Positions 10,580 to 27,147 of a stretch of DNA of 64,000 nucleotides are shown piece by piece. The notes beneath the pieces are model-generated. The model had not been told where the DNA came from, did no database searches, and saw nothing but the letters and a program-made list of their open reading frames with translations. Position 1 is the first letter of the stretch. Each line of letters starts with the position of its first letter. This DNA is from Squalus acanthias (Eukaryota), in NCBI GenBank assembly GCA_030390025.1, contig CM059431.1, forward strand, positions 124,436,001 through 124,500,000. The letters run 5' to 3'. The position numbers were made by a program, and so were the translations under genes.

Positions 10580-11245
10580 GGGGATGAATTTCCATGTGAA
10601 GTTCTCCCGTTTGTCCACTGTAACTTCAACGGAAGAGCCACAGAATCCCTGGAAGAATGGGATCAATGGGTTTCCATGGCTCTTCCAGCGAAGTTATGTT
10701 GGATGCGCGGAAGAAACGCCTTTGTTTGCGGGCCTTCACGGGAGCATCGAAAATTAAGCTGGGTCTTTTGGGTGCAAGGACAGTAAGTAATAGGTGCATT
10801 TTAAAAGGTTTCGAATACATTTAAAAAAAAATACACTAAGGAACTGATGACTGTAACCAAAATAACTAGAAAATAGTTTTGTATATTCTTAAAAAGTCAT
10901 TTTCAGTCATTTGAAATCAGGTTACTCAAAGGTGGTGCATCGATACTGCGATTAAAAATGCTTATTTTTTGTGATTAACCCATTTTCAGCTGCATTAATC
11001 AAACTGCACCAAGTTACCACTCTTAGATATATCAAGGAATACATTTTAAAGCAACATTTAAAAAAAAAGTTATGTTTTAAAACACTGCCCAATTGCACTG
11101 GTTCATGGCAGATTTTGTGTTTGGCGACATGCAAATGAGTTTAAGCGGAAATGCCAGGAAAAAAAACACTTTTGAAAATGGACGCGATTTAGGGCGCAAT
11201 TTGTGCCGGAATCGCCAATTGTACTCAAAGCGGAAACTCTACCCC
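10580..11245. mobile_element. Harbinger-type MITE
   Basis: TIRs GGGGATGAATTTCC...GGAAACTCTACCCC. Confidence 0.55.
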
Positions 11246-11292
11246 AGTGTGCGTAGTTAGAGCACTGTCATTTTATTCTCAGTCTCTCACTC

Positions 11293-13035
11293 ACACACAG
11301 AAACATGCACACAGCTACACACATACACATACCTACAGAAACATGCACACAGGTACACACATACACATACCTACAGAAACATGCACACAGTTACACACAT
11401 ACACATACCTACAGAAACATGCACACAGGCACACACATACACATACATACAGAAACATGCACACAGGTACACACATACACATACATACAGAAACATGCGC
11501 ACAGCTACACACATACACATACCTACAGAAACATGCACACAGCTACACACATACACATACATACAGAAACATGCACACAGGTACACACATACACATACCT
11601 ACAGAAACATGCACACAGGCACACACATACACATACCTACAGAAACATGCACACAGGCACACACATACACATACCTACAGAAACATGCACACAGCTACAC
11701 ACATACACATACATACAGAAACATGCACACAGGTACACACATACACATACCTACAGAAACATGCGCACAGGTACACACATATACATACAGAAACATGCGC
11801 ACAGCTACACACATACACATACCTACAGAAACATGCACACAGCTACACACATACACATACCTACAGAAACATGCACACAGGCACACACATACACATACAT
11901 ACAGAAACATGCGCACAGCTACACACATACACATACCTACAGAAACATGCACACAGCTACACACATACACATACCTACAGAAACATGCACACAGGTACAC
12001 ACATATACATACAGAAACATGCACACAGGTACACACATATACATACAGAAACATGCGCACAGGTACACACATACACATACCTACAGAAACATGCACACAG
12101 GTACACACATATACATACAGAAACATGCACACAGGTACACACATACACATACCTACAGAAACATGCACACAGGTACACACATAACATACTACAGAAACAA
12201 TCGCACGGTACACACATATACATACAGAAACAAGCACACAGGTACACACATATACATACAGAAACATGCGCACAGGTACACACATACACATACCTACAGA
12301 AACATGCACACAGGTACACACATACACATACCTACAGAAACATGCGCACAGGTACACACATATACATACAGAAACATGCACACAGGTACACACATATACA
12401 TACAGAAACATGCGCACAGGTACACACATACACATACTACAGAAACATGCACACAGGTACACACATACACATACTACAGAAACATTGCACACAGTACACA
12501 CATACACATCCTACAGAAACATGCGCACAGGTACACACATATACATACAGAAACATGCACACAGGTACACACATATACATACAGAAACATGCGCACAGGT
12601 ACACACATATACATACAGAAACATGCACACAGGTACACACATATACATACAGAAACATGCACACAGGTACACACATACACATACAGAAACATGCACACAG
12701 GTACACACATACACATACCTACAGAAAAATGCGCACAGTTACACACATACACATACATACAGAAACATGCACAGAGGTACACAGATACACATACCTACAG
12801 AAACATGCACACAGGTACACACATACACACAGAGACATGTGCATAGGTACATACATACACATACATACAGAAACATGCACACAGGCACACACACACATAC
12901 ACACAGAAACATGCACGCAGGTACACACATACACACACATACAGAACAAAGCCCACAGGTACAAACATACACATATACACAGAAACATGCACACACACAG
13001 GTGCATGCATTAACATGCACATAGAAACATGCACA
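11293..13035. repeat. Minisatellite with 38-bp and 34-bp units
   Basis: Tandem ACAGAAACATGCACACAGGTACACACATACACATACCT and a shorter ...CACATATACAT variant; degenerates at the right end. Confidence 0.97.
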
Positions 13036-14297
13036 GTCAGAGGCATGCACATCCCAGACATTCTGGATTTTTTTTATTTAATCAACATTAATTTTACCTC
13101 AATAAGGCTTTTGAAAATTGTTCCCTTGTTTTGCAAAATTATTTGAAGAAAAGCTGCTTTGCCCAAAGTGCTTTAAGCTAAAGTAAAATACACATTCAGT
13201 ACAGATGACTGAACAGCACTGAGGCATCCTGGGAATTTAGGATTGCTCAGATTGTGCAATCGAAATTCATCTCAGAGTCACAGCTTTGGGCAAATAATTA
13301 TGTTCAAGCTCAGGCTGTTTGGAAAGTCTGCAGCCTTTAAGTGAAAACTTTAATAAAAGTACTAAAAGACACAAAGACAATTCAATGAATAACATTAATC
13401 ATGTTATTGCAAAATATGTTATTTTTTACAATTTGAACTTTAGAAATTTCACTCACTGAGCAAGCTTCTTTCAATAGCTACATTATATACAATATCTTAC
13501 AATTAACCAACCAACTCCATTCTGGCTGGTAATTCAAAGCACCAACGGCGACCAAAGGTCTACTTCATTACTTTTCTGCCTCGCAGTTGCCCTATCTTGT
13601 GGGCGTGAAGGGAATGTAAGTGTAATTACTGGTGCCTTGTACGAGGGGGAATACCACAGGATTAGGTTTGCTCTTCCAGCTGTTGTTGAGTGTCAGTGTT
13701 GAATTTGATGGATGCCAATGTGTGGCAAAGGAGACCATTTGTTACCACGGCAATGCAGCGGTGAACTGCAGACCAACTATTCTGAGTAATGTCTCCTGTT
13801 CGCACCTGGAAGGACCCAGTGGTGAAAAAGTGGTCAATTTGCTTTCACTGGTTTGGATGTTGCTTCATGGTTGCAGATGTAGTTTCAAGCGCTGAAATGT
13901 CTGCGATCATGTTCCGTGTCAAGGAGTAGCCTTATAACACACTATTCCTGAATGAGGTCCATGTTGGTGATATGTCAATATTAATCATTCTACATCGGTG
14001 GTCACAAGTCCTGTAAGACAGCCTCCTGCGGCCTCGAGTCCTCCAAACTGACATTTACTGTTGCTGCTGCCTCCTCCAAACTATCTAACTTTTTCAAACT
14101 TGATGCGCTGCAATTTTACAAATGACTTTTATCTCCTACTCTGCTCACCACTAGAATTCTAACAACCCCTTTCAATCCATTAGCATGGGTTTAAATGAGA
14201 AAAATTAACATGACGTGGTTTGAGTAAATTTGCATATTCCCAGTTAATAACTGTTTAACTAGTATTAAGAGGCAAAAAATTGCATTTCCATTAACTT

Positions 14298-14499: not shown

Positions 14500-15170
14500 G
14501 GGGGCGATTTTGGCCGAATACATTAGGCACTAAAGAGCCTCCGAAGTGGCCAAGATAGGGTCTTAAGCTGCAATGCGGTTTAGCCCGTGTTCAGCACAAG
14601 ACGCTAGCTTGGTAAAGAAGTTGAAATGCGCACTCGGAACAGTCACCCGGAGGATCGTTAAGGGGCTGATTGACAATTAAATTGCCTGCTAGCGCTCATT
14701 AAATAGGCTGAACGTCATTTTGGTGGGTATCGCTTCATTTAATGACCTCTCCTAACAGCGACCAGCTGAACAGGAGTAAACAATTCCTTGCCGAGGATTT
14801 CGAGCGCTACTTAAAGCCATGCTCAGATTTCAATGTTCACTTGCTGATTGAGATTGACTGACTACACTGCGTTTGAAGAGGACTTTTGAGACACATCAGG
14901 AGACTTTCTGGGTCACTTTGTCAAGACTTCACCAACACTCTATCAACATTTTTCTTGGATATTTTCTCAGGAATTCACCTAAAAAGAGTGAGTGCTGTGC
15001 TACTCTACATTATTAGACACGTTACAGGAGTCACCAGGAGAAAGAGAGTGCTTGATCATGGGCATCTTGCTATGGGTCCCCCTTGCTCTGCGTGAGGAAT
15101 TGGAGGAGGAGATGAGGGCAGGTAGAGCAGCACCAGCTGCTGCAGGAGAGAGGGACAGGAGAGCGAGGAG

Positions 15171-16892
15171 TGTAAGGGATTCCTGACCCTGCGTGTCTCG
15201 CAGCCTGTGAGATTCACGCGGCTCTGTGCAGCCTGTATGTCAGTGCGGGTCTAGGCCTGGTTGCCTGTTCTGGTCTCCAGCCAGTCTGGGAACACTAGAC
15301 ACACCTGTGAGTGGTTCGAATCACTCTCCCTTACGGTTCTAGACACTGGACTTAGATGCGAGAGCAGTAATGGAGATAAAACTCATGTAGACTTGGTTTG
15401 AATGGTACGAAATGGAAAATCTTTATTGCATGATACTTAAGATTATGAAATACATGTCATAAGCACAGATTAATGACAGTACAATCTTACAAACAGTTAT
15501 ATAGTCGATCTTAGGGAAACGAGGAACGAACGGCACAAAGTAAATAGGGGCACACATTACAAATATCCTTAATCCTTAAACCCTCCCCTATCAATATCTA
15601 TCCTAAACTAGCTTCGTAGGATCTCGAGACTCATGCTCACCACTCGTGATAACTCGGAGAAATTCCGAATAGCTGATCGGATGTTTTTCACCGCAGCACC
15701 CACGTGTCGGTCAGGAGATCTCCTGGTCCCACTTGTTTACTTGCTTCTGCTGCTCCGGCTAGTAGGCTGGACCGTCTGCTGTGATGAAGACCTGTGTTGG
15801 TTGGCTTAACAGGTACTCTTGGAGCACAGTTGTCAATATCATCGATACGATGTGTTTTCACGTTCCAATCTCCTTGGACACAGTCCCGTTATCGTCGATG
15901 CAATATGTTTTGTTAAAAGTTCAAAATAGAAATCTTCCTGGCGAGGAAAACTTGGCTGATCGACCTACAGGCGCGGTCGGGATTTACTGACCGTGGCGAT
16001 GGATATGGTCTTCCTCTCTTCTCCTCTCATCTCATCTCATCTCATCTCATCTCGGGCCTTTGGTTCCGCTGCCAGTTACCAACATAGGTCTTCGTTACGC
16101 GACACGAGGTAGATCCGAACGGATCAGAAAGTTCAACAGTCTTTTCAGAAGAGGCAACGGGCAAGCAGAAGCCCAACTACGAGTACACAGGAGCAGCCAC
16201 GAGGTTACGAATCGACCGGATAAAAGCACAGGAGCAAGCGAGCGAATGCAAGAGCAAGAGAGCGAATGGACGGTTTGGAGCCTGCAATTATAGTGCAAAA
16301 ATCTTCCGTTTCCCGCCCAACTATAATGTCCATTCTTTGTTTAGGGTTTGGCGCCCAAATGTCTTGTATGGGTGATCTCCGTTCTTAATGGGTTTCGGGG
16401 CTACTCATAAATGTCTGAGTACCTGTTAATATTTCTCCCATTGTTAAATCGGTCGGTGTTCTCCCTGGAGGGGTTTGGGGCTTCCAAGTGTCCTGTATAA
16501 CTACCTGCTAACGGCTCTCTCATCGTAGAGTCGTTGGGATTTTACATATTAATGTCTTTTGGATGGGCCCTTGAGTACTCGGTACAATGGCTTTCCTTTG
16601 TACCTGGGAGACCGATTCCAGTATCTATGTTTATACTGCAAACCCATAATGTCTCGTGTATTATCTTCACTGTGCTGAATCGTTATCGATCTTGCACAAA
16701 TGTTTAATGGAACGCCATCTTGTCTGCCTGTTGAAAAGTCTAGAATGTTGTGTCACGAGGTGCGGCGGCCATTTTACAGGCTGCTTGTGTCCAATTTAAA
16801 CCTGCCAGCATTCTGCTGAAATAAAAGCTGTTTGAACGAAACTTTGTGTTTTCTCCTTATTAATCAAATCGCGATATATTGCGAATTCTACA
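15171..16892 (-). repeat. 3' LTR (1722 bp)
   Basis: Direct repeat of 22967-24688 at a constant offset of 7796; TGTA...TACA termini; short ORF translations identical in both copies. Confidence 0.97.
15422..15427 (-). terminator. Putative LTR polyadenylation signal AATAAA
   Basis: GCAATAAAG on the minus strand, conserved in both solo LTRs. Confidence 0.6.
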
Positions 16893-16904
16893 GTCCCTCC
16901 TGTT
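16893..16904 (-). other. Polypurine tract
   Basis: AACAGGAGGGAC immediately precedes the 3' LTR start (TGTAG) on the minus strand. Confidence 0.65.
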
Positions 16905-17338: not shown

Positions 17339-19690
17339 TTACACGGTGCTCTCATCGTGCACGCGCACGTAACGTTCTCGCCACTCTCCCGTGTTTTCAT
17401 GCTTGGTGAGGCGTTTGTCTCTTTTACAATGTACGACCAATAGGTACACTACAATAAACACTTGGCATACGACTAAAATGTGGGAGGCTATTCTAATCCA
17501 TGAAGGCACTTCAATATTAGTGAACAGATTCCACCACGGTGGAACTACTATGTCCAGAATGTCTGTTCCTATTTCGACAGTTTTCTGCTCTAATGTATAA
17601 AAATGTTTCTGTGATACCGCGACGGCTTTCAGAAGTTTGGTTAAATGTTCAGGGAGAGGGGGAATGAGGTATCCAAAATGTGCGACAAATCGCTGCAAGT
17701 CGGTGAAATTCTCTTTTACTGTGAGATGAACAGTGGATGGTTCAGGGATTGGGATAATTCGCTGTTGTGCTACTTGAACTTCAGCCCTGGGTTTAAAACA
17801 GAAACTGCTGTCACTCACCGGACACCGGCTACGGTTTCCATGCTGGTAGTGTTGCGCTGCAGTGGTAACACAATATGTTCCACCCCCGATGTATGCTACC
17901 TGCGGAGGCACATGATCTTGTGCCATTGCCTCCATGGTGCAATTCATGGACTTGGCGCCAGCCGTTCTGAACCCGCACTGTGGTGTTAAAAAGGCATTCA
18001 AGTGCTGGGGGCACAGTATTATGTGTGCTCCCCTGCCACGACAACCAGAGAGATCTGTACCTGTCATCGTTTGCTCCCAGCGGATGACGTAAGGTGGAAC
18101 CGCTGCGTAACGAATGTGGGCTCCCCCCTGAATGACACCAATGTTCTCTACCCGATACACCGGGGCGGGCTTTGCTGTGTCGCCCAAAACCGGCATGCGT
18201 AATACTATTCCCATAATAGTATGGTTTGAACGTCCGCAGTCCACGGGGACTGGGTAAGCTTCTGAAGCTAGCCTGAGCTGGCACGGACTTAATGCGTTCT
18301 GAAAAGGGTGGAGCGCCCGTAGGTGTTTGTTACTTATCCAGGACGGAACCAAACCTTGTTTTAAATCCTCCAAATTACTGCGGCCCTCGCCCAGTAACCA
18401 CGCCCCGTAAAGCACGCACACCTCGTTCTGCGCAGCTTGATCGGATGCATTCCGATCTTCCCTGATCAGGGCATTTACCGTACGCGCATGTTTCTCCAGC
18501 TCTGCTATAATTTCCTTTAAATGGAGAGTCATGGCTTGGTCCTCGTGTAGACCTGACCCTACCACTTTATTCTCATCTGTTAGAATGTCTTTTAACTGTG
18601 TTTTTAAACCATTAATCTGGGTCTGCAGCTCCACACTGTCTAGAGCGTTGACCACAGATGTCCCTGTGTTAAAAGCAGTGAACGCATCGTTCACCAAACC
18701 CCTTCTTTGCCTCCCTACTTGATCCAAAACTTCCTGCGGTGCGGTGTACAAACTTGTCTTATCAATTTCTGCAAAATCAAACTCGTAAAATTGTCTGAAC
18801 ATCTTGGTCAACAGGACCTGATACAACTGTTCCGTCTTTTTGGGGCACCACTCTGGTAACCGTACCTCAGTGAGATTTAAAATCACCGAGGCCACCGCGT
18901 AATGTACCCCCTGAAATAGTATCTGGTCTGTGGGGACCAGTACCAAACCATTCCCGGGTCCCTTACTAGTTTTAGGGCACCCTTCTTCCTCAGCTAGAAC
19001 CACCGGAATCGTGGGCGGGGCTTTGCGTGGGCGCGTAATGAGCTCAGTGGCATTTACTGGGATCGGGGAGAATGGGGCTCCGCACCCCCTGGTGCTCGCA
19101 TCCCACCTCATCCCCTGTCCGTTATCCTGCCATTGATTAATAAAAAATATGGAGATGCCTTTGGGGCAAACGTACTTTGACCCCCACATACATACATAAA
19201 TCCCCTCATCCGGTTCCCACCATTTGTCCCAACAGACTTTCACTTGTCCGTCTGTCCCCGTAATTGTCCGATGGGTATTATTACCCAGTCGTTCCCACTC
19301 GACCGAAGAGTTTCTCATAGTTTTGCTCAGCTTTCGCAGCCACCAGCATCGGCTCAATGGGACCTTCCCACTACAAGTCAAACAAATCCGTTTGCCGACG
19401 GTGACGCTGATCCTGGGTGCGATGATCCTTACTTTGGGGCACAGTAAAGAAGTCTCTTGGTAGGCAAACCCCGATGTGCTGGAATACTCCGTTGAGTTCG
19501 TTCCCAGCCATCCTGGCCACCTTCCCTTGTGGAAATAGGTGCTGGTCCCCTCTGCCTTCCGTCTTCCGGTCCCATCCACCGCGATGGGGGCCGTGTCCCC
19601 GGAACATCCAAACACCACGACATCCTTGGTGCGGCCTCGATAGGCCAATCCACATCCGATTGCCACGAGCAATACTAGAATTCGTTCCAT
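17339..19690 (-). CDS. env: Envelope glycoprotein: Ig-like domain plus F-type class I fusion protein (~783 aa)
   Basis: Signal peptide MERILVLLVAIGCGLA from ATG 19690; furin site RQRR at 18701-18712; fusion peptide GLVNDAFTAF; heptad repeat; Cys-rich region; TM helix ILVVCQVFIVVYLLVV; short tail; uninterrupted frame. Confidence 0.9.
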   Translation of the reverse strand: MERILVLLVAIGCGLAYRGRTKDVVVFGCSGDTAPIAVDGTGRRKAEGTSTYFHKGRWPGWLGTNSTEYSSTSGFAYQETSLLCPKVRIIAPRISVTVGKRICLTCSGKVPLSRCWWLRKLSKTMRNSSVEWERLGNNTHRTITGTDGQVKVCWDKWWEPDEGIYVCMWGSKYVCPKGISIFFINQWQDNGQGMRWDASTRGCGAPFSPIPVNATELITRPRKAPPTIPVVLAEEEGCPKTSKGPGNGLVLVPTDQILFQGVHYAVASVILNLTEVRLPEWCPKKTEQLYQVLLTKMFRQFYEFDFAEIDKTSLYTAPQEVLDQVGRQRRGLVNDAFTAFNTGTSVVNALDSVELQTQINGLKTQLKDILTDENKVVGSGLHEDQAMTLHLKEIIAELEKHARTVNALIREDRNASDQAAQNEVCVLYGAWLLGEGRSNLEDLKQGLVPSWISNKHLRALHPFQNALSPCQLRLASEAYPVPVDCGRSNHTIMGIVLRMPVLGDTAKPAPVYRVENIGVIQGGAHIRYAAVPPYVIRWEQTMTGTDLSGCRGRGAHIILCPQHLNAFLTPQCGFRTAGAKSMNCTMEAMAQDHVPPQVAYIGGGTYCVTTAAQHYQHGNRSRCPVSDSSFCFKPRAEVQVAQQRIIPIPEPSTVHLTVKENFTDLQRFVAHFGYLIPPLPEHLTKLLKAVAVSQKHFYTLEQKTVEIGTDILDIVVPPWWNLFTNIEVPSWIRIASHILVVCQVFIVVYLLVVHCKRDKRLTKHENTGEWRERYVRVHDESTV

Positions 19691-19702
19691 CCTTCCTTGG
19701 TT

Positions 19703-19730
19703 CCTGTGATCAGATAGAATGAGGTAGCCA
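19703..19730 (-). promoter_or_regulatory. Putative env splice acceptor
   Basis: CTACCTCATTCTATCTGATCACAG|G lies 13 nt upstream of the env ATG. Confidence 0.55.
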
Positions 19731-19878
19731 GCCTCGCAAGAGTCTCTGGCTTTTGTGAAGGGTGAGCGGGTCCCCTGACCTCGCCTCACGTAAATTTCAA
19801 CGTTTGCTGAATAAACTTCCTCTAAACCTAACCTTAAAACTCCCATCATTTTATCGTTTTCTGTTAAAAACACTACAA

Positions 19879-19972
19879 ACTTAGCCTTATTAAAACTTAA
19901 AACTTAACCTTGAACTATAAACTTAAAACTTAACCTTGAACTATAAACTTAAAACTTAGAACTATAACTTTA
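19879..19972. repeat. Short AT-rich tandem repeats between ORF X and env
   Basis: Repeated AAACTTAAAACTTAACCTTGAACTAT-type units. Confidence 0.8.
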
Positions 19973-20001
19973 CAGTGCCGCCCGTTCTCAGGGCGGCCCC
20001 T

Positions 20002-21150
20002 TTAAACTCTGAGAAGGCTGCTGCGAGCTCTTCCCGACGGTGGGAGGGCACTGACCCTTCCCTCTGATCTGCCGCAGCCTGTTGCTGCGCTGACCCTTCC
20101 CTCTGATCTGCCGCAGCCTGTTACTGCTGCGATGTGGCCGGTCTGTACCCAGGTTATCTTAACCTGAAGTCTACGCCTTGGGGCAGTCTGGGGACATGAC
20201 CACATCCTCCTGGGCTGGGGTTCTCTACTTGACCTACGGGGAGTTGCTATGGGCGGGGGTTCCGTGACGGACGGACCGGGTTCCGAGACCTCCAACGGGA
20301 TGACCTGGGGTTCCATCACAGTCGCCGGCTCCGCCTCCGCTGACTCCGCCTCCCTAACCTCGGGGCTGGCAGTTCGTGGCTCCGCCCTGCTCGGCCCAGC
20401 AAGCGGCCCTTCACTCGTGATCTCTGCCTCCCCTGAGGACTGGACGTTCAAAGCGGGCGGCCACATCTCTGGGAGCCACATCGGTACTCTCTGTGCTCCT
20501 ATAGCGGCTGGCCCTGCCTCCTCTAGCTCCTCCCTCCTGTCCTCGGGACCTGCAGCTTGTGTGTCCACCCTGTGTGGATCTCTACCTATAGGCCCCATTC
20601 CCTCCAGACCGTTCCTCAGGAACCACCCGTCATCATCACTATGCTCATCTGCACTATCCTCATCTGACCAGGGTACCCTGGGTTCTTCCTCATCTAACCC
20701 CCAACTCCAGAAAAACGCTGCATGATCGTCCGGGATGTCCCTTCCCCTGATGCAAGCTGCTATGCCTGCCTGTGTGCCTTGTGGTCCTACCTGGGGCTGT
20801 GCTTTCCCATTGGCGGGATTTACCCCTGTAGTTTTCCCCTGCGCACCCGGCTGGTACAGTTTGCATTGGTTTACATCCTCATACTCCCGGCTTTTGGCTA
20901 CCCTGTAGGCTGCTTTTACCTCACTAAGCTGCGCTTCTAGCCTGAGCACGTCTAACTTTCCCATTGATCGGGCGTTCTCCTCCCGCAGGGCCTGCTCTCT
21001 AAGCTGCCCTTCCAGCCCATCTATTTTCCCTATTAAGCGGGCGTTCTCCTCCCGCAAGGCCTGCTCTTTTAACCTGGCCTCCTCACCGCAGACCCCCTCC
21101 TGTGCGTGTCTTTTAAAAGGACACAGGTAGGCAGGCTGCGTGGGCTCTAG
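20002..21150 (-). CDS. ORF X: unknown coiled-coil, acidic and Pro-rich protein in frame with gag (~382 aa)
   Basis: Open from directly after the gag TGA (LEPTQPAYLCPFKR...) to the stop at 20002-20004; no protease, RT or integrase motifs. Confidence 0.7.
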   Translation of the reverse strand, partial: LEPTQPAYLCPFKRHAQEGVCGEEARLKEQALREENARLIGKIDGLEGQLREQALREENARSMGKLDVLRLEAQLSEVKAAYRVAKSREYEDVNQCKLYQPGAQGKTTGVNPANGKAQPQVGPQGTQAGIAACIRGRDIPDDHAAFFWSWGLDEEEPRVPWSDEDSADEHSDDDGWFLRNGLEGMGPIGRDPHRVDTQAAGPEDRREELEEAGPAAIGAQRVPMWLPEMWPPALNVQSSGEAEITSEGPLAGPSRAEPRTASPEVREAESAEAEPATVMEPQVIPLEVSEPGPSVTEPPPIATPRRSSREPQPRRMWSCPQTAPRRRLQVKITWVQTGHIAAVTGCGRSEGRVSAATGCGRSEGRVSALPPSGRARSSLLRV

Positions 21151-21156
21151 TCATTG
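21083..21156 (-). promoter_or_regulatory. Putative stop-codon readthrough signal (CAA UGA CUAG plus 3' hairpin)
   Basis: TGA at 21153-21151 followed by CTAG; downstream complementary blocks CGCAG/CTGCG and CCTGTG/CACAGG. Confidence 0.7.
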
Positions 21157-22962
21157 GGTACTATTAGACGGTCCTGCGGCACCTACGGGGCCGGTTGCGA
21201 CCGCCACCTGTCCACGCCCATTCAAGTCTAGCTTGCGCATGGCTCCTAACACTGCTTCGAGGTCGTCGGGAGGGGTGGGTGCCTTGGCTTCCTTAGCCGG
21301 GACAGGCGCCTGGGCTCGGACCGCGGGATTTTTATCCTTGGAATCCTTCCAAGGGTTCCTGCAATGCTTGCGCCAGTGCCCTGTCTTTCCACACCCGTAA
21401 CAAGCATTACTTGCCTGTGGGGCGCGATTCCCCTCCTGATGCCACTCTCTTTGATACGGGGCTGCGGGTCGTACCTCATGTACTCTTCCCTTAAAGGGAC
21501 GTGTCGTCATACCCCTTATATTACGATAACCTAACGTGAGTCGATTCAAGACCGACTCTTCCGTAAGGTTGAGATCATTGGGATCGAACCATGCTTTTGC
21601 CTGCTCTCTAACGGCTGGTAAACTGTTGGCTATTATGCACCTAAGCTAATGAGTTAAAGCGGCGCCTTCCACATCTTCGCGCTCGGGCGCACCTAGACAG
21701 CTGCGCTCATATACTGGCCACAGCCTGTCGGCAAAAACCTTCGGGGGTTCTCCCTCCATCTGCACTGTCTGTCCCACTCTAGCAAACGGACCTCCGTCGT
21801 TCGCCCCCAACACTTCTAGGACCTCATTCTTTAATTCCTCATAACTCTTGTTTCCCCTCTTGCTCTCGCCTGAGAGACACTGAAGGACCGAGCTGTCTAA
21901 TGAGAACAGCAGCATTTTTGCTGTCTCCCCATCATCGCAGCCGTTAATGGCTGCGGCTTGCTCAACTTCTCTGAAATGTACGGAAGGGTCGTCTATCTCG
22001 GTCAGCTTCCGTACGTGATTTATCATAGCTCTCAGCTGATGTGAACTGTGAGGCAACACCAGCTGTCCGAGGAGATCCCCCGGTTCTTCCCCACCGTTTC
22101 TGCTTGGGCCCCTTTTAATACCCGTTACTGGATACAACGATCCCTTTTCTACTTTCTTTTCAATGGGCTCTTTTGTTTCTTCCATTGCTTCCTCCCTAAC
22201 CCAGGTTTCTGAATAGCTGGGTGGCGCGGAGGGCGCAGTGGCTACTACTTCTTCTGCTTTACTTGGTGGGGATTTTCTAAATCTCTCATTTACTAGCGGC
22301 TGGTGCGCCGACGGATTGATAAGGCACACCATGCCGTTCGCATTGTTCACGGCCTTTTTGAGGTTCTCTATCTCCCTTTGGCAGGCGCTATGGTCGGCTC
22401 CCTGAAACTTATCCTCAAGGGCCAACTTATATGCCGACCTAACCCCCATTAAGCTCTCTTCTTGAGTTCTTATCTGGGCAGCTTGGCGGTTACATCTTTC
22501 CTTTAACCTGCTCTCATTCAATTTTGCCTCAGTGACCTGGCACTCGAGATAATCTATCCTTGTCTTAAGGTGACTGGAGACTTCCTGGCTTTCCTGGTGT
22601 AACTCATTTAAATTCTTAATGAGCACCTCCCCTCCAGAAACCTTCTTCTCCATTTCTCCCTCTAAATGACTGATTCGAGCTACTAGCGCTGTAATGGTCT
22701 GGTTTGAAATCTGAACCTGCCTTTTGTAGCACATAAGCCAGACTGCTTTCTCAAGTGTCTTTTTATGTTCTTTACTATCTGTCCACCTTTCAGCTGCCTC
22801 TAGTGGGCTCTTATCCGCTAACAATTCACTTATCCATTTCTTAGTTAGATTAACCTTTCCAAACACATAATCCGCTATCTTTTCCTGCATAACATTTCGT
22901 ACAGTCATTCCAAAATCTAACACACTACCCTCTCGCTGCCAGTGTCCTGCCGCGGTCGCCAT
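21151..22962 (-). CDS. gag: Gag-like polyprotein (~603 codons) with one internal in-frame TAG at 21646-21648
   Basis: ATG 22962 (MATAAGHW); coiled coil; PSAPPSY at 22213-22233; helical capsid-like region; CYGCGKTGHWRKHC knuckle at 21361-21402; ORFs 21646-23013 and 21151-21549 share a frame. Confidence 0.88.
22944..22961 (-). other. Primer-binding site complementary to tRNA-Arg(UCG)
   Basis: TGGCGACCGCGGCAGGAC lies 5 nt after the 5' LTR and is complementary to ...GUCCUGCCGCGGUCG-CCA, the vertebrate tRNA-Arg-TCG 3' end as recalled. Confidence 0.85.
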
Positions 22963-22966
22963 TTTC

Positions 22967-24688
22967 TGTAAGGGATTCCTGACCCTGCGTGTCTCGCAGC
23001 CTGTGAGATTCACGCGGCTCTGTGCAGCCTGTATGTCAGTGCGGGTCTAGGCCTGGTTGCCTGTTCTGGTCTCCAGCCAGTCTGGGAACACTAGACACAC
23101 CTGTGAGTGGTTCGAATCACTCTCCCTTACGGTTCTAGACACTGGACTTAGATGCGAGAGCAGTAATGGAGATAAAACTCATGTAGACTTGGTTTGAATG
23201 GTACGAAATGGAAAATCTTTATTGCATGATACTTAAGATTATGAAATACATGTCATAAGCACAGATTAATGACAGTACAATCTTACAAACAGTTATATAG
23301 TCGATCTTAGGGAAACGAGGAACGAACGGCACAAAGTAAATAGGGGCACACATTACAAATATCCTTAATCCTTAAACCCTCCCCTATCAATATCTATCCT
23401 AAACTAGCTTCGTAGGATCTCGAGACTCATGCTCACCACTCGTGATAACTCGGAGAAATTCCGAATAGCTGATCGGATGTTTTTCACCGCAGCACCCACG
23501 TGTCGGTCAGGAGATCTCCTGGTCCCACTTGTTTACTTGCTTCTGCTGCTCCGGCTAGTAGGCTGGACCGTCTGCTGTGATGAAGACCTGTGTTGGTTGG
23601 CTTAACAGGTACTCTTGGAGCACAGTTGTCAATATCATCGATACGATGTGTTTTCACGTTCCAATCTCCTTGGACACAGTCCCGTTATCGTCGATGCAAT
23701 ATGTTTTGTTAAAAGTTCAAAATAGAAATCTTCCTGGCGAGGAAAACTTGGCTGATCGACCTACAGGCGCGGTCGGGATTTACTGACCGTGGCGATGGAT
23801 ATGGTCTTCCTCTCTTCTCCTCTCATCTCATCTCATCTCATCTCATCTCGGGCCTTTGGTTCCGCTGCCAGTTACCAACATAGGTCTTCGTTACGCGACA
23901 CGAGGTAGATCCGAACGGATCAGAAAGTTCAACAGTCTTTTCAGAAGAGGCAACGGGCAAGCAGAAGCCCAACTACGAGTACACAGGAGCAGCCACGAGG
24001 TTACGAATCGACCGGATAAAAGCACAGGAGCAAGCGAGCGAATGCAAGAGCAAGAGAGCGAATGGACGGTTTGGAGCCTGCAATTATAGTGCAAAAATCT
24101 TCCGTTTCCCGCCCAACTATAATGTCCATTCTTTGTTTAGGGTTTGGCGCCCAAATGTCTTGTATGGGTGATCTCCGTTCTTAATGGGTTTCGGGGCTAC
24201 TCATAAATGTCTGAGTACCTGTTAATATTTCTCCCATTGTTAAATCGGTCGGTGTTCTCCCTGGAGGGGTTTGGGGCTTCCAAGTGTCCTGTATAACTAC
24301 CTGCTAACGGCTCTCTCATCGTAGAGTCGTTGGGATTTTACATATTAATGTCTTTTGGATGGGCCCTTGAGTACTCGGTACAATGGCTTTCCTTTGTACC
24401 TGGGAGACCGATTCCAGTATCTATGTTTATACTGCAAACCCATAATGTCTCGTGTATTATCTTCACTGTGCTGAATCGTTATCGATCTTGCACAAATGTT
24501 TAATGGAACGCCATCTTGTCTGCCTGTTGAAAAGTCTAGAATGTTGTGTCACGAGGTGCGGCGGCCATTTTACAGGCTGCTTGTGTCCAATTTAAACCTG
24601 CCAGCATTCTGCTGAAATAAAAGCTGTTTGAACGAAACTTTGTGTTTTCTCCTTATTAATCAAATCGCGATATATTGCGAATTCTACA
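22967..24688 (-). repeat. 5' LTR (1722 bp)
   Basis: Direct repeat of 15171-16892, followed on the minus strand by the PBS. Confidence 0.97.
24084..24114 (-). promoter_or_regulatory. Putative LTR core promoter (GC box plus TATAA)
   Basis: GGGCGGG at 24114-24108 then TATAA at 24088-24084; similar arrangement in both solo LTRs. Confidence 0.5.
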
Positions 24689-26055
24689 GGAGGACTCTCA
24701 GCAGGGGGCGCTATCCACCCAGGGTCTTCAGAGGGCAATACACCTACATTCACATGACCCAAGACCAGTGCATGAGGAGGGTGCGCTTTACCAAAGAGGT
24801 CATTACAGAGATCTGTGGCCTTGTGGAACGAAGACTCAGATGTCAAGGCACAGCCAGGACTGCATTGCCTGTGGCAGTCAAGGTCACAGTAGCACTTAAT
24901 TTTTATGCTACTGGAACCTTCCAGGCTGCCACAGGTGATAGAAGTTACATATCGCAATCCTCTGTGCTCTTATGCATAAGGGAGGTTGCTGAGACCCTAT
25001 ACACTCTGAGGAATGACTAATATCATTCCTTATTGCCAGAGAAGACCAGAGGCAGAGAGCTCTAGGGGGAGAAATTTGTGTTAGCCAGTAAAGTTGCTGG
25101 AGGTAACAGTCGCTGAAAATAGGTGCAACGCTAACAGAGCAAAATTCATCTGGGAGGATGGAGACTGTTGGCGCAGCGCTTACCTGCCATGCAACGCCAT
25201 CCTGGTGACGTTGCTGGAGGCATCCAACCCAAAGTTGGTGTGCAGGTGCGGCGTTCGAGCCTCTCACAGCCTCTGGAGGCAAGTCTGTGGAGCTCACAGG
25301 GAATTGAGGGCAATGAAGAGCCCTGAGAATTAAAGTGGCCATGCACACTGAAGCAATACAAATTAAAATGAAGTGAAACAATGCAGTTTTTACATAGGGT
25401 TGCATAGGATATACAGCACAGAAACAGGTCATTTCAGCCCTTTCTGCTTCTTTAAAAAAATATTTAACATTAAAAAGAAGTCCCAAATGTGAATATTCAG
25501 CTCGCATAAGCTAAATTCCCTTCCTAACCTCAAAAAATGGGAAAAATGCCTCAGCACGAACACAAGTGGCTCAACAAGCCAGGGACGGGGCACCCAGGGT
25601 CTCGCACGCAGCACTCCAGCTTTGTGCAGGGCGTCAACACTGCAACACAGGCCCTCTACCCGCAGGGGCCAGAGGCCCTCCAGAAAGAACGATGTGGGAT
25701 TACATTACCGAGGCTGTCACTATGTCGCCCCCACCACCTGGCTCCAGTGCCCAAAGAAGCATCATGACCTCAGACCACTAGTCAAGGTCAGTGAATGCAT
25801 TTTCAAAAGCCACCTCCTACTAACTGCACCACTAGCCTCACACACTGCTCATGCACGACCCCATATCACTCACCTACCAACAATCTGCACCAATCAGAAG
25901 GCACAGCTCCCATTCCTAGCCTTACCTTACCTCCTTCGAGGAGACTGTGCAGATCATTCTTGGCAGGAGTATGGCTGAGCCCTTGGCTAGTGGCGGGGCT
26001 GAAAGGATACAAGATGCTGGTATCCTCATATGTTACTCTCCTTCTGGCATGCACC

Positions 26056-27147
26056 TGGTTGGCAGACAGGAAGCAAAGAGTTGGAATAAATGGGTCTTTT
26101 TCCGAGTGGTAGGCAGTGACTAGTGGGGTACCGCAGGGATCGGTGCTAGGACCCCAGCTATTCAGAATATATATTAATGATCTAGACGCGGGAATTAGAT
26201 GTAATATCTCTAAGTTTGCAGATGACACAAAGCTGGGTGGGCGTGTGTGCTGTGAGGAGGGTGCAGAGAAACTCCAGTATGATTTGGACAGGTTGGGTGA
26301 TTGGGCAGATGCATGGCAGATGCAGTATAATGTGGATAAATGCGAGGTTATCCACTTTGGTGGCAAAAACAGGAAGACAGATTATCATCTGAACGGCAAT
26401 AGATTGGGAGAAGGGGAAGTGCAACGAGATCTGGGAGTCCTTGTGTACCAGTTGCTGAAGGTAAGCATGCAGGTGCAGCAGGTGGTTAAGAAGGCAAATG
26501 GTATGTTGGCCTTCATAGTGAGAGGATTCGAGTACAGGAGCAAGGATGTCTTGCTGCAGTTGTACAAGGCCTTGATGAGACCATACCTTGAGTATTGTGT
26601 GCAGTTTTGGTCGCCTTATCTTAGGAAGGATGTTCTTGCCATGGAGGGAGTGCAGCGAAGATTCACCAGGCTGATACCTGGGATGGCAGGAATGACGTAT
26701 GAAGAGAGATTGGGTCGATTAGGCTTATATTCGCTAGAGTTTAGAAGAATGAGAGGGGATCTCATTGAAACTTATAAAATTCTAACAGGACTAGATAGAC
26801 TAGATGCAGGAAGGATGTTCCCGATGGTGGGCGAGTCCAGAACCAGAGGTCACAGTCTAAGGATAAGGGGTAAGCCATTTAGGACTGAGATGAGGAGGAA
26901 TTTCTTCACCCAGAGAGTGGTGAACCTGTGGAATTCTCTACCACAGAAGGCAGTTGAGGCCAATTTATTAAATATATTTAAGAAGGAGATAGATATATTT
27001 CTTAAGGCTAAAGGGATCAAGGGATATGGGGAGAAAGCAGGGACAGGGTACTGAATTTGGATGATCAGCCATGATCTCATTAAATGGCGGAGCAGGCTCG
27101 AGGGGCCAAATGGCCTACTCCTGCTCCTATCTTCTATGCTGCTATGC
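26056..27147 (+). mobile_element. 5'-truncated CR1 LINE with an open RT C-terminal ORF (26116-27054)
   Basis: SGVPQGSVLGP, KFADDTKL, LEYCVQFWSP motifs; CTATG-type tail. Confidence 0.93.

Follow-up and report, generated by a model that had tools for sequence, protein, structure and literature searches.

The pro-pol genes of gamma- and epsilon-retroviruses are expressed by readthrough, as described in passages of a 2026 review (PMC13517186). The same passages give UAGGGA, UAGGAU, UGAAGA, UGACGA, UGAAGU and UAGGGC as retroviral contexts and assign UGACUA to the type II context of alphaviruses and a dicistrovirus; no retrovirus with UGA-CUA occurs in them, a negative which holds for those passages alone. 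In human cells, UGA-CUAG supports efficient readthrough of four human genes, UGA-CUA alone gives 1.5% readthrough, UGA performs 3- to 6-fold better than the other stops in combination with the CUAG motif, and in the OPRL1 context the C and the following three bases all matter (passages of PMC4132726). The present analysis concerns an endogenous retrovirus (ERV) on the minus strand of a 64,000-nucleotide stretch of the Squalus acanthias genome (assembly GCA_030390025.1, contig CM059431.1, positions 124,436,001 to 124,500,000), here called the window. Its gag gene ends with TGA followed by CTAG, and the frame continues behind the stop as a second open reading frame (ORF), named ORF X. To our knowledge, retroviral readthrough is understood almost wholly from the UAG-pseudoknot of murine leukaemia virus (MLV), and the readthrough signals of fish and lower-vertebrate retroviruses are varied and unverified. 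No paper on readthrough in ERVs of sharks or cartilaginous fishes was among those that literature searches listed, and a term search of the lokiretrovirus paper (PMC7947760) returned no mention of readthrough, stop codon or cartilaginous.

The TGA is the gag terminator of a pol-deleted ERV, with a context inherited from the gag-pro junction of autonomous relatives. It is likely leaky, in which case a small fraction of ribosomes would continue into X. Its nature as a readthrough-type gag stop is well supported by comparison, and from this we infer readthrough itself. On the minus strand the junction reads ...AGT ACC CAA TGA CTA GAG CCC ACG CAG CC... (positions in the table). A sequence-only reading of the window had claimed that gag ends ACC CAA TGA CTA G with an open frame behind it. 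This was confirmed, the open frame extending for 382 codons up to a TAA. With the base composition of that stretch, the chance of 382 stop-free codons is ~9e-7. The heptamer TGACTAG is not rare per se (6 occurrences in the window, 8.07 expected); beyond chance are its exact placement at the gag stop and its recurrence among relatives. The window element thus has gag and a downstream ORF in the same frame with a single stop between them and a UGA directly before CUAG. Its downstream ORF does not encode protease, reverse transcriptase (RT) and integrase, which are found at this place in the autonomous relatives.

Relatives were found by searching the same genome with two Gag homologue proteins. 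The search distinguished two families, F2 (70 scored matches of 9864 candidates) and F3 (74 of 8753), both older than the family of the window element. Gag ends were read in 64 loci of these families, 24 with flanks and 40 as 451-nt stretches. The junction was present in 62 of them and the block was missing in two. All 62 junctions possess TGA, so the stop is conserved at this position across the relatives. The tetranucleotide after it is CTAG in 33, CTGG in 23, CTAA in 4 and CGAG in 2; the +4 C is invariant (62/62) and the +5 U is present in 60/62. In autonomous members, the gag frame continues past the TGA as LE(P/L)AQPVYLCP...LLDTGAS, which is a retroviral protease, and in the sequence that follows Pfam identified RVP, RVT_1, RT_RNaseH, RNase_H, Integrase_H2C2, rve and an SH3 domain. 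The presence of TGA in all 62 junctions together with in-frame protease, RT and integrase in the autonomous relatives therefore points to an inherited readthrough-type gag-pro junction.

The autonomous family closest to the window element, F1a, was defined by a pattern made of the 18 nt of the window from the stop and a DTG-codon motif 60-90 nt downstream, which matched 17 places in the genome. Among six fetched loci, three (L102-L104) showed 87-89% identity to the last 1.5 kb of the window gag and the other three 74-86%. Homology of the window element to the six loci (blastn) breaks off at a distance of 22-35 nt, counted from the first stop base; in five of them the distance is 35 nt. In one sampled F1a copy, a 611-codon gag frame is followed by the TGA and, without a change of frame, by 1297 uninterrupted pro-pol codons; its env frame has 847 codons. 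Identity of the window element to this copy is 91% over the LTR (long terminal repeat) end and gag, and reaches 93% from the end of pol across env into the LTR. Synonymous diversity is 0.31 per site in the 11 codons after the stop vs 0.61 in the next 24 (codons 12-35), while non-synonymous diversity is similar over both stretches (0.10 and 0.135). The lower synonymous diversity after the stop hints at RNA-level constraint, in a sample that is small and consists of related sequences.

The arrangement resembles that of Moloney MLV (MoMLV), walleye dermal sarcoma virus (WDSV), the swim bladder sarcoma virus of salmon (SSSV) and zebrafish endogenous retrovirus (ZFERV) in having one in-frame stop between the nucleocapsid end and the protease N-terminus upstream of DTGA. 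Pro-pol of the autonomous relatives is in the gag frame, as it is in gamma- and epsilon-retroviruses. Since a single TGA between gag and in-frame pro-pol is the arrangement of these retroviruses, the families found here presumably express pol by readthrough. The RT of the autonomous relatives is, among solved structures, closest to foamy-virus and MLV/XMRV (xenotropic MLV-related virus) RTs (~1e-51). An affiliation with the lokiretroviruses was considered but not established. The window element itself differs from gammaretroviruses in lacking pro-pol. MoMLV uses UAG-GGA and a pseudoknot, and for other retroviruses of fish and frogs UAGGAU, UGAAGA, UGACGA, UGAAGU and UAGGGC are given (passages of PMC13517186). 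The families here instead have UGACUA or UGACUG, and neither a pseudoknot nor a covarying structure was detected in them.

The heptamer of the window, UGA-CUAG, is identical to that of OPRL1, OPRK1, AQP4, MAPK10 and MDH1 and shares UGA-CUA with the alphavirus opal codon (passages of PMC4132726). As with type II leaky stops, the stop is always UGA and conservation at the nucleotide level is seen just 3' of it. Unlike type II leaky stops, in which CUAG is almost invariant, the relatives have CUGG at 23/62 and CUAA at 4/62 junctions; the host and the gene class also differ. The leaky UGA-CUAG context claimed by the sequence-only reading therefore stands in part: a readthrough-type TGA is kept in 62/62 junctions, but CUAG is not strictly conserved. 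The specific claim for CUAG is weaker than one for UGA followed by C-U-purine, because 23/62 junctions are CUGG while OPRL1 needed all four nucleotides. The many CUGG junctions argue that the lineage keeps C-U-purine rather than CUAG proper.

Copy B of F2 (L045+L046), which was fetched separately and lies outside the 62 junctions, is an independent deletion derivative that has lost the TGA. With a sense codon in place of the gag stop, its open frame runs for 1004 codons and comprises gag, a protease remnant and the pol tail. F3b (L109+L110, L090-L099) is a second pol-less family with gag, TGA CTGG and a 343-codon X-like ORF that includes a longer second-gag piece.

The family of the window element was searched in the 3.7-Gb genome with a 401-nt query around the stop. 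Scored matches numbered 41 among 2011 first-look candidates, all with 99-100% identity. Copies were counted with a 32-place pattern in which the seven bases from the stop were left free, giving at least 651 near-identical copies. Of 100 listed among these 651 matches, 97 possess TGACTAG and the remaining three TAACTAG, TGACTGG and AGACTAG. Conservation of the stop in family members, which had been named as a check on the readthrough claim, was borne out, with TGA CTAG present in 30/30 loci of 3.4 kb each. As 29 of the 30 are also identical over the hairpin region discussed below, the family is too young to inform on selection at the signal. The LTRs and gag common with an autonomous family, the absence of pol and the many copies mark it as a pol-deleted derivative of an autonomous ERV family. 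It is very young, very abundant and presumably helper-dependent. Tandem arrays with common LTRs were observed on several contigs, with a spacing of ~7.7-7.8 kb in the pol-less family and ~12.4 kb in the autonomous relative.

Coding constraint was analyzed in 24 copies, L006, L010, L011, L018, L020 and L028 being dropped for frameshifts or large deletions. For gag, pN/pS came to 0.22 in the coding frame and exceeded 1 when the other frames were read. For X it was 0.72 in its own frame vs 0.82 and 0.93 in the others. When substitutions common to at least two copies were counted, omega was 0.20 for gag (42 synonymous, 29 non-synonymous; p 1.6e-11), 0.64 for X (29 and 60; p 0.035) and 0.93 for the first 100 codons of X (4 and 13; not significant). 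Gag is under purifying selection. All X indels that recur in two or more copies have lengths divisible by 3, namely 39 nt (13 copies), 12 nt (7) and 33 nt (3), and so does a 78-nt insertion present in one copy only. Indels that shift the frame, one of 13 nt and four of 1 nt, each occur in a single copy. X is open in 23/30 copies, and the whole gag-X frame with just the two expected stops is intact in 22/30. Near the C-terminus of X (~20063-20140, minus strand), a 39-nt tandem unit encoding 13 residues is present in two copies in the window element; the number of units varies, one being lost in 13/29 other copies and two gained in one.

ORF X is, by its sequence affinities, a rearranged pro-pol remnant with a gag-like insert and not a new gene. 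It is a mosaic of a protease stub, a gag-like coiled coil, an integrase end and a pol tail, and in annotation 'ORF X' should not be named a new gene. The stub repeats the peptide found ahead of the DTGAS motif in autonomous relatives and is truncated at the homology breakpoint. The coiled coil resembles that of gag in copies A and B, the identity being 44-47% over 45 residues. The pol-like part begins at residue 92 (VNQCKLYQP). In a five-sequence database, blastp of X matched copy B (E 2e-5) and copy A (E 0.002). In tblastn against the F1a copy, identity was 57% over residues 81-180 in the pol frame and 74% over residues 289-382, there past the pol stop and in a different frame; residues 181-288 have no counterpart in this sampled copy. 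The sole match of X among 1.84 billion representative proteins was P0008, a 266-residue fragment of integrase end and pol tail (E 4.6e-12). Pfam has no family for X, a search of 5.8 billion proteins gave no homologue in the range of 210-669 residues, and none of the Atlas neighbours was credible (best score 0.81, recognition 1143). Capture of a host gene, with X as an oncogene-like insert, was rejected on the lack of such a homologue and of a credible Atlas neighbour and on the single match being a pol-tail fragment. No fused Gag-X or Gag-Pol protein of 1057-3015 residues was found in the databases, which is weak evidence.

The X-like ORF of F3b lies in frame behind its TGA CTGG and has the first 51 residues and the last residues of X in common. 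Over 283 aligned codons it shows 55% amino acid identity to X with a pN/pS of 0.61 (0.32 for gag in this pair), a value that the protein-guided alignment biases downward, and it is whole in 3/7 F3b loci. X is kept in frame in two families and weakly constrained.

Internally deleted, helper-dependent proviruses that outnumber their parents are familiar from the mouse, as in the intracisternal A particle (IAP) I-delta-1 type, with its gag-pol fusion, and in the early transposon pair ETn/MusD. Moloney murine sarcoma virus (MoMSV) is also helper-dependent (passages of PMC13517186). The window family resembles these three in having LTR and gag common with an autonomous family (~91%), in the loss of pol, in its high copy number and in a gag under purifying selection. 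It differs from them in retaining env and in a deletion that spares the readthrough stop. As the deletion leaves this stop in place, a Gag-delta-Pol fusion would depend on recoding. The autonomous relatives would make Gag-Pro-Pol by readthrough of the UGA, like gamma- and epsilon-retroviruses. The same event in the deleted family would yield a low-abundance Gag-X (Gag-delta-Pol) fusion, which could enter particles via its Gag part, while RT and integrase would come from an autonomous relative.

The signal for such readthrough is likely the sequence right after the stop (C-U-purine, perhaps with the next 30 nt) rather than a hairpin. The sequence-only reading had pointed out a hairpin a few nucleotides downstream; that it is a required 3' stimulator together with UGA-CUAG now appears quite unlikely. 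The arms do pair, and the hairpin starts at the spacing of known stimulators (8 nt in MoMLV; passages of PMC13517186). The isolated 59 nt (21142-21084) fold at -26.1 kcal/mol with a z of -3.19, and 2/200 shuffles fold as well. In a longer context the signal weakens. The 100 nt after the stop give z -1.59 and a minimum-energy fold that differs from the hairpin, and the 111 nt that surround the stop have z -0.17, 76/200 shuffles being as good. The 5' arm is inside the 35-nt block common to all relatives, but the 3' arm is beyond the homology breakpoint at +35, in sequence exclusive to the two pol-less families. It is thus absent from the autonomous relatives, which need readthrough most. In six of these, shuffled sequences fold as well as the 100 nt behind the stop (z +0.16, +0.61, -1.28, +0.65, -0.50 and +0.35). 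Seven F3b copies keep 9-10/10 pairs of the upper stem but 4-5/7 of the lower stem, with no compensating change. The check for covariation which had been suggested for the hairpin found none; with 29/30 family copies identical there, the family offers no covariation to read. RNAalifold gave just a 6-bp hairpin (-5.0 kcal/mol) for 54 unique junctions of all families; for 27 distinct autonomous junctions the energy was -11.08 kcal/mol and the covariation term only -0.86. In the latter set, the candidate stem of columns 23-29/77-83 is 98.9% paired with 211/500 shuffles as high, and that of columns 13-18/28-33 is 97.5% paired with 500/500 shuffles as high. None of the candidate structures tested showed covariation support beyond sequence conservation. 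Pairing at long range between CCUGUGUC and the DTG codons was also rejected, as the Thr codon ends in A, U, G or C depending on the family and thus does not covary.

A leaky stop also has to be weighed against a plain terminator, behind which X would be an untranslated or functionless relic, open through parentage and youth, any readthrough product being incidental. This is rather unlikely. X is indeed a patchwork of retroviral pieces without a family of its own, its omega is 0.64 overall and 0.93 in the first 100 codons, the two LTRs are identical and around the stop the copies agree to ~99%. The pol 3' end may also be kept for RNA-level reasons such as an env splice acceptor, by analogy with general retrovirus biology. 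Against the relic stand the multi-copy X indels, none of which breaks the frame while frameshifts are private, and the persistence of an X-like ORF with the same start and end behind TGA in a second family. The stop context is moreover of leaky type regardless of the importance of the product. Expression of X apart from gag, by a spliced RNA or internal initiation, would make the in-frame layout irrelevant, and is highly improbable. Nothing direct favours it; the first Met of X is residue 62. Against it, X does not open with an ATG, and X-like ORFs are found in the gag frame behind TGA in two diverged families and start with a protease stub abutting the stop. Recoding of the invariant UGA as selenocysteine was considered as well, and the in-frame pro-pol and the C-U-purine context fit readthrough (no search for a selenocysteine insertion sequence was made). 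Several points nevertheless weigh against a leaky gag stop leading into X. CUAG is not invariant, the CUGG junctions including subfamilies that multiplied. X is weakly constrained, its N-terminal 100 codons alone showing no significant constraint, and in so young a family its open frame could partly be inheritance. Two in-frame junctions are expected by chance at ~1 in 9. The gag of the window copy carries a nonsense mutation, an in-frame TAG which is TGG in 28/29 other sampled copies, the region being deleted in 1/29. Readthrough efficiencies of the motif come from mammalian cells and not from Squalus acanthias (passages of PMC4132726). No run recorded as RNA was found to contain the stretch. 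Contigs of four runs whose RNA nature is guessed, and which are possibly DNA, include some that are unbroken across the stop and show no joint into X among the matches listed; they are uninformative on expression and splicing.

The probable inherited leaky stop has consequences beyond the window. In the genome, UGA-CUR is present at the gag-pro junction in three families with hundreds of copies, and two pol-deleted families keep the site. They form a natural series for the minimal 3' context driving opal readthrough in a vertebrate, and could show whether a Gag-delta-Pol fusion helps non-autonomous elements to spread. A bolder scenario, speculative and on balance improbable, is that a lineage swarming the genome expresses Pro-Pol by an opal stop UGA-CUR, of the type known from alphaviruses and cellular genes, and a short conserved 3' block in place of a pseudoknot. 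Its pol-less offspring would keep the site for a dedicated Gag-X, and X would be a new particle-borne accessory protein made of gag and pol scraps that aids them in parasitizing, and outnumbering, their helpers.

The element as a whole is a ~9.5-kb provirus of the order LTR-gag-X-env-LTR with 6.07 kb between the LTRs. The coordinates of its features are given in the table. The two LTRs are identical, with 0 mismatches across the 1723 positions compared. Neither the ORF list nor Pfam revealed protease, reverse transcriptase or integrase between them.

Table. Features of the provirus and of its gag-X junction in the window
Feature	Position	Strand	Description or basis
Target-site duplication CTCC	24689..24692 (upstream copy); 15167-15170 (other copy)	-	4 bp; flank sequence
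5' LTR	22967..24688	-	1722 bp, TG...CA ends; direct repeat with spacing 7796
Putative primer-binding-site-like 18-mer, TGG...	22944..22961	-	overlaps first gag ATG; sequence reading
gag	21154..22962	-	ORF of 603 codons from first ATG; coiled coil and one CCHC knuckle
Private nonsense codon TAG in gag	21646..21648	-	comparison with 29 other copies
CCHC zinc knuckle, nucleocapsid part	21358..21405	-	motif CYGCGKTGHWRKHC; Pfam zf-CCHC E 0.022, under curated cut-off
gag stop TGA	21151..21153	-	sequence reading and conservation among copies and relatives
CTAG right 3' of gag stop	21147..21150	-	sequence reading
ORF X	20005..21150	-	382 codons, gag frame; terminator TAA 20004-20002
Block of 35 nt after stop common to autonomous relatives	21116..21150	-	homology breakpoint at +35
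X residues 1-11 (LEPTQPAYLCP), protease N-terminus stub	21118..21150	-	same peptide ahead of DTGAS motif in autonomous relatives
Hairpin of the sequence-only reading	21084..21142	-	17 bp with bulges, begins 8 nt past stop
X residues 12-91, linker and gag-like coiled coil with internal duplication	20878..21117	-	common to F3b X-like ORF
X residues 92-382, integrase SH3 end and pol C-terminal tail	20005..20877	-	blastp/tblastn to pol ends of copies A, B and F1a
env-like ORF	17342..19852	-	837 codons from first ATG; RQRR cleavage-type site, C-terminal membrane anchor
Putative polypurine tract AGGAGGGA	16894..16902	-	adjoins 3' LTR; sequence reading
3' LTR	15171..16892	-	1722 bp; second copy of direct repeat

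The private TAG interrupts gag, and the window copy is therefore unable to make full-length Gag. With the letter X written for the residue at the TAG break in the query, two database homologues of Gag were identified, P0001 of the skate Rhinoraja longicauda (588 residues, 50% identity) and P0002, a 628-residue ENA protein (35%). Both terminate at the position homologous to the end of the window gag, the skate one on Q. The Gag N-terminus MATAAGHW was found again in the skate and ENA homologues. The first gag ATG is 4 nt past the 5' LTR (22944-22966) and overlaps the primer-binding-site-like 18-mer; no leader therefore separates the LTR from the gag frame.

The env-like ORF shows 72% and 93% nucleotide identity to env of autonomous copies, and its protein has no sequence match in Pfam or PDB. 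In the protein, the RQRR site is followed by a long helical region, with the C-terminal anchor far off. The gap between the X stop and the env start (19900-19990, minus strand) is filled by a short AT-rich tandem repeat. Elsewhere in the window, positions 11193-13146 hold ~2 kb of an imperfect short tandem repeat, CA/TA-rich and open in several frames on both strands, and positions 26113-27051 on the plus strand contain a non-LTR-type reverse transcriptase fragment (Pfam RVT_1, E 1.5e-10).

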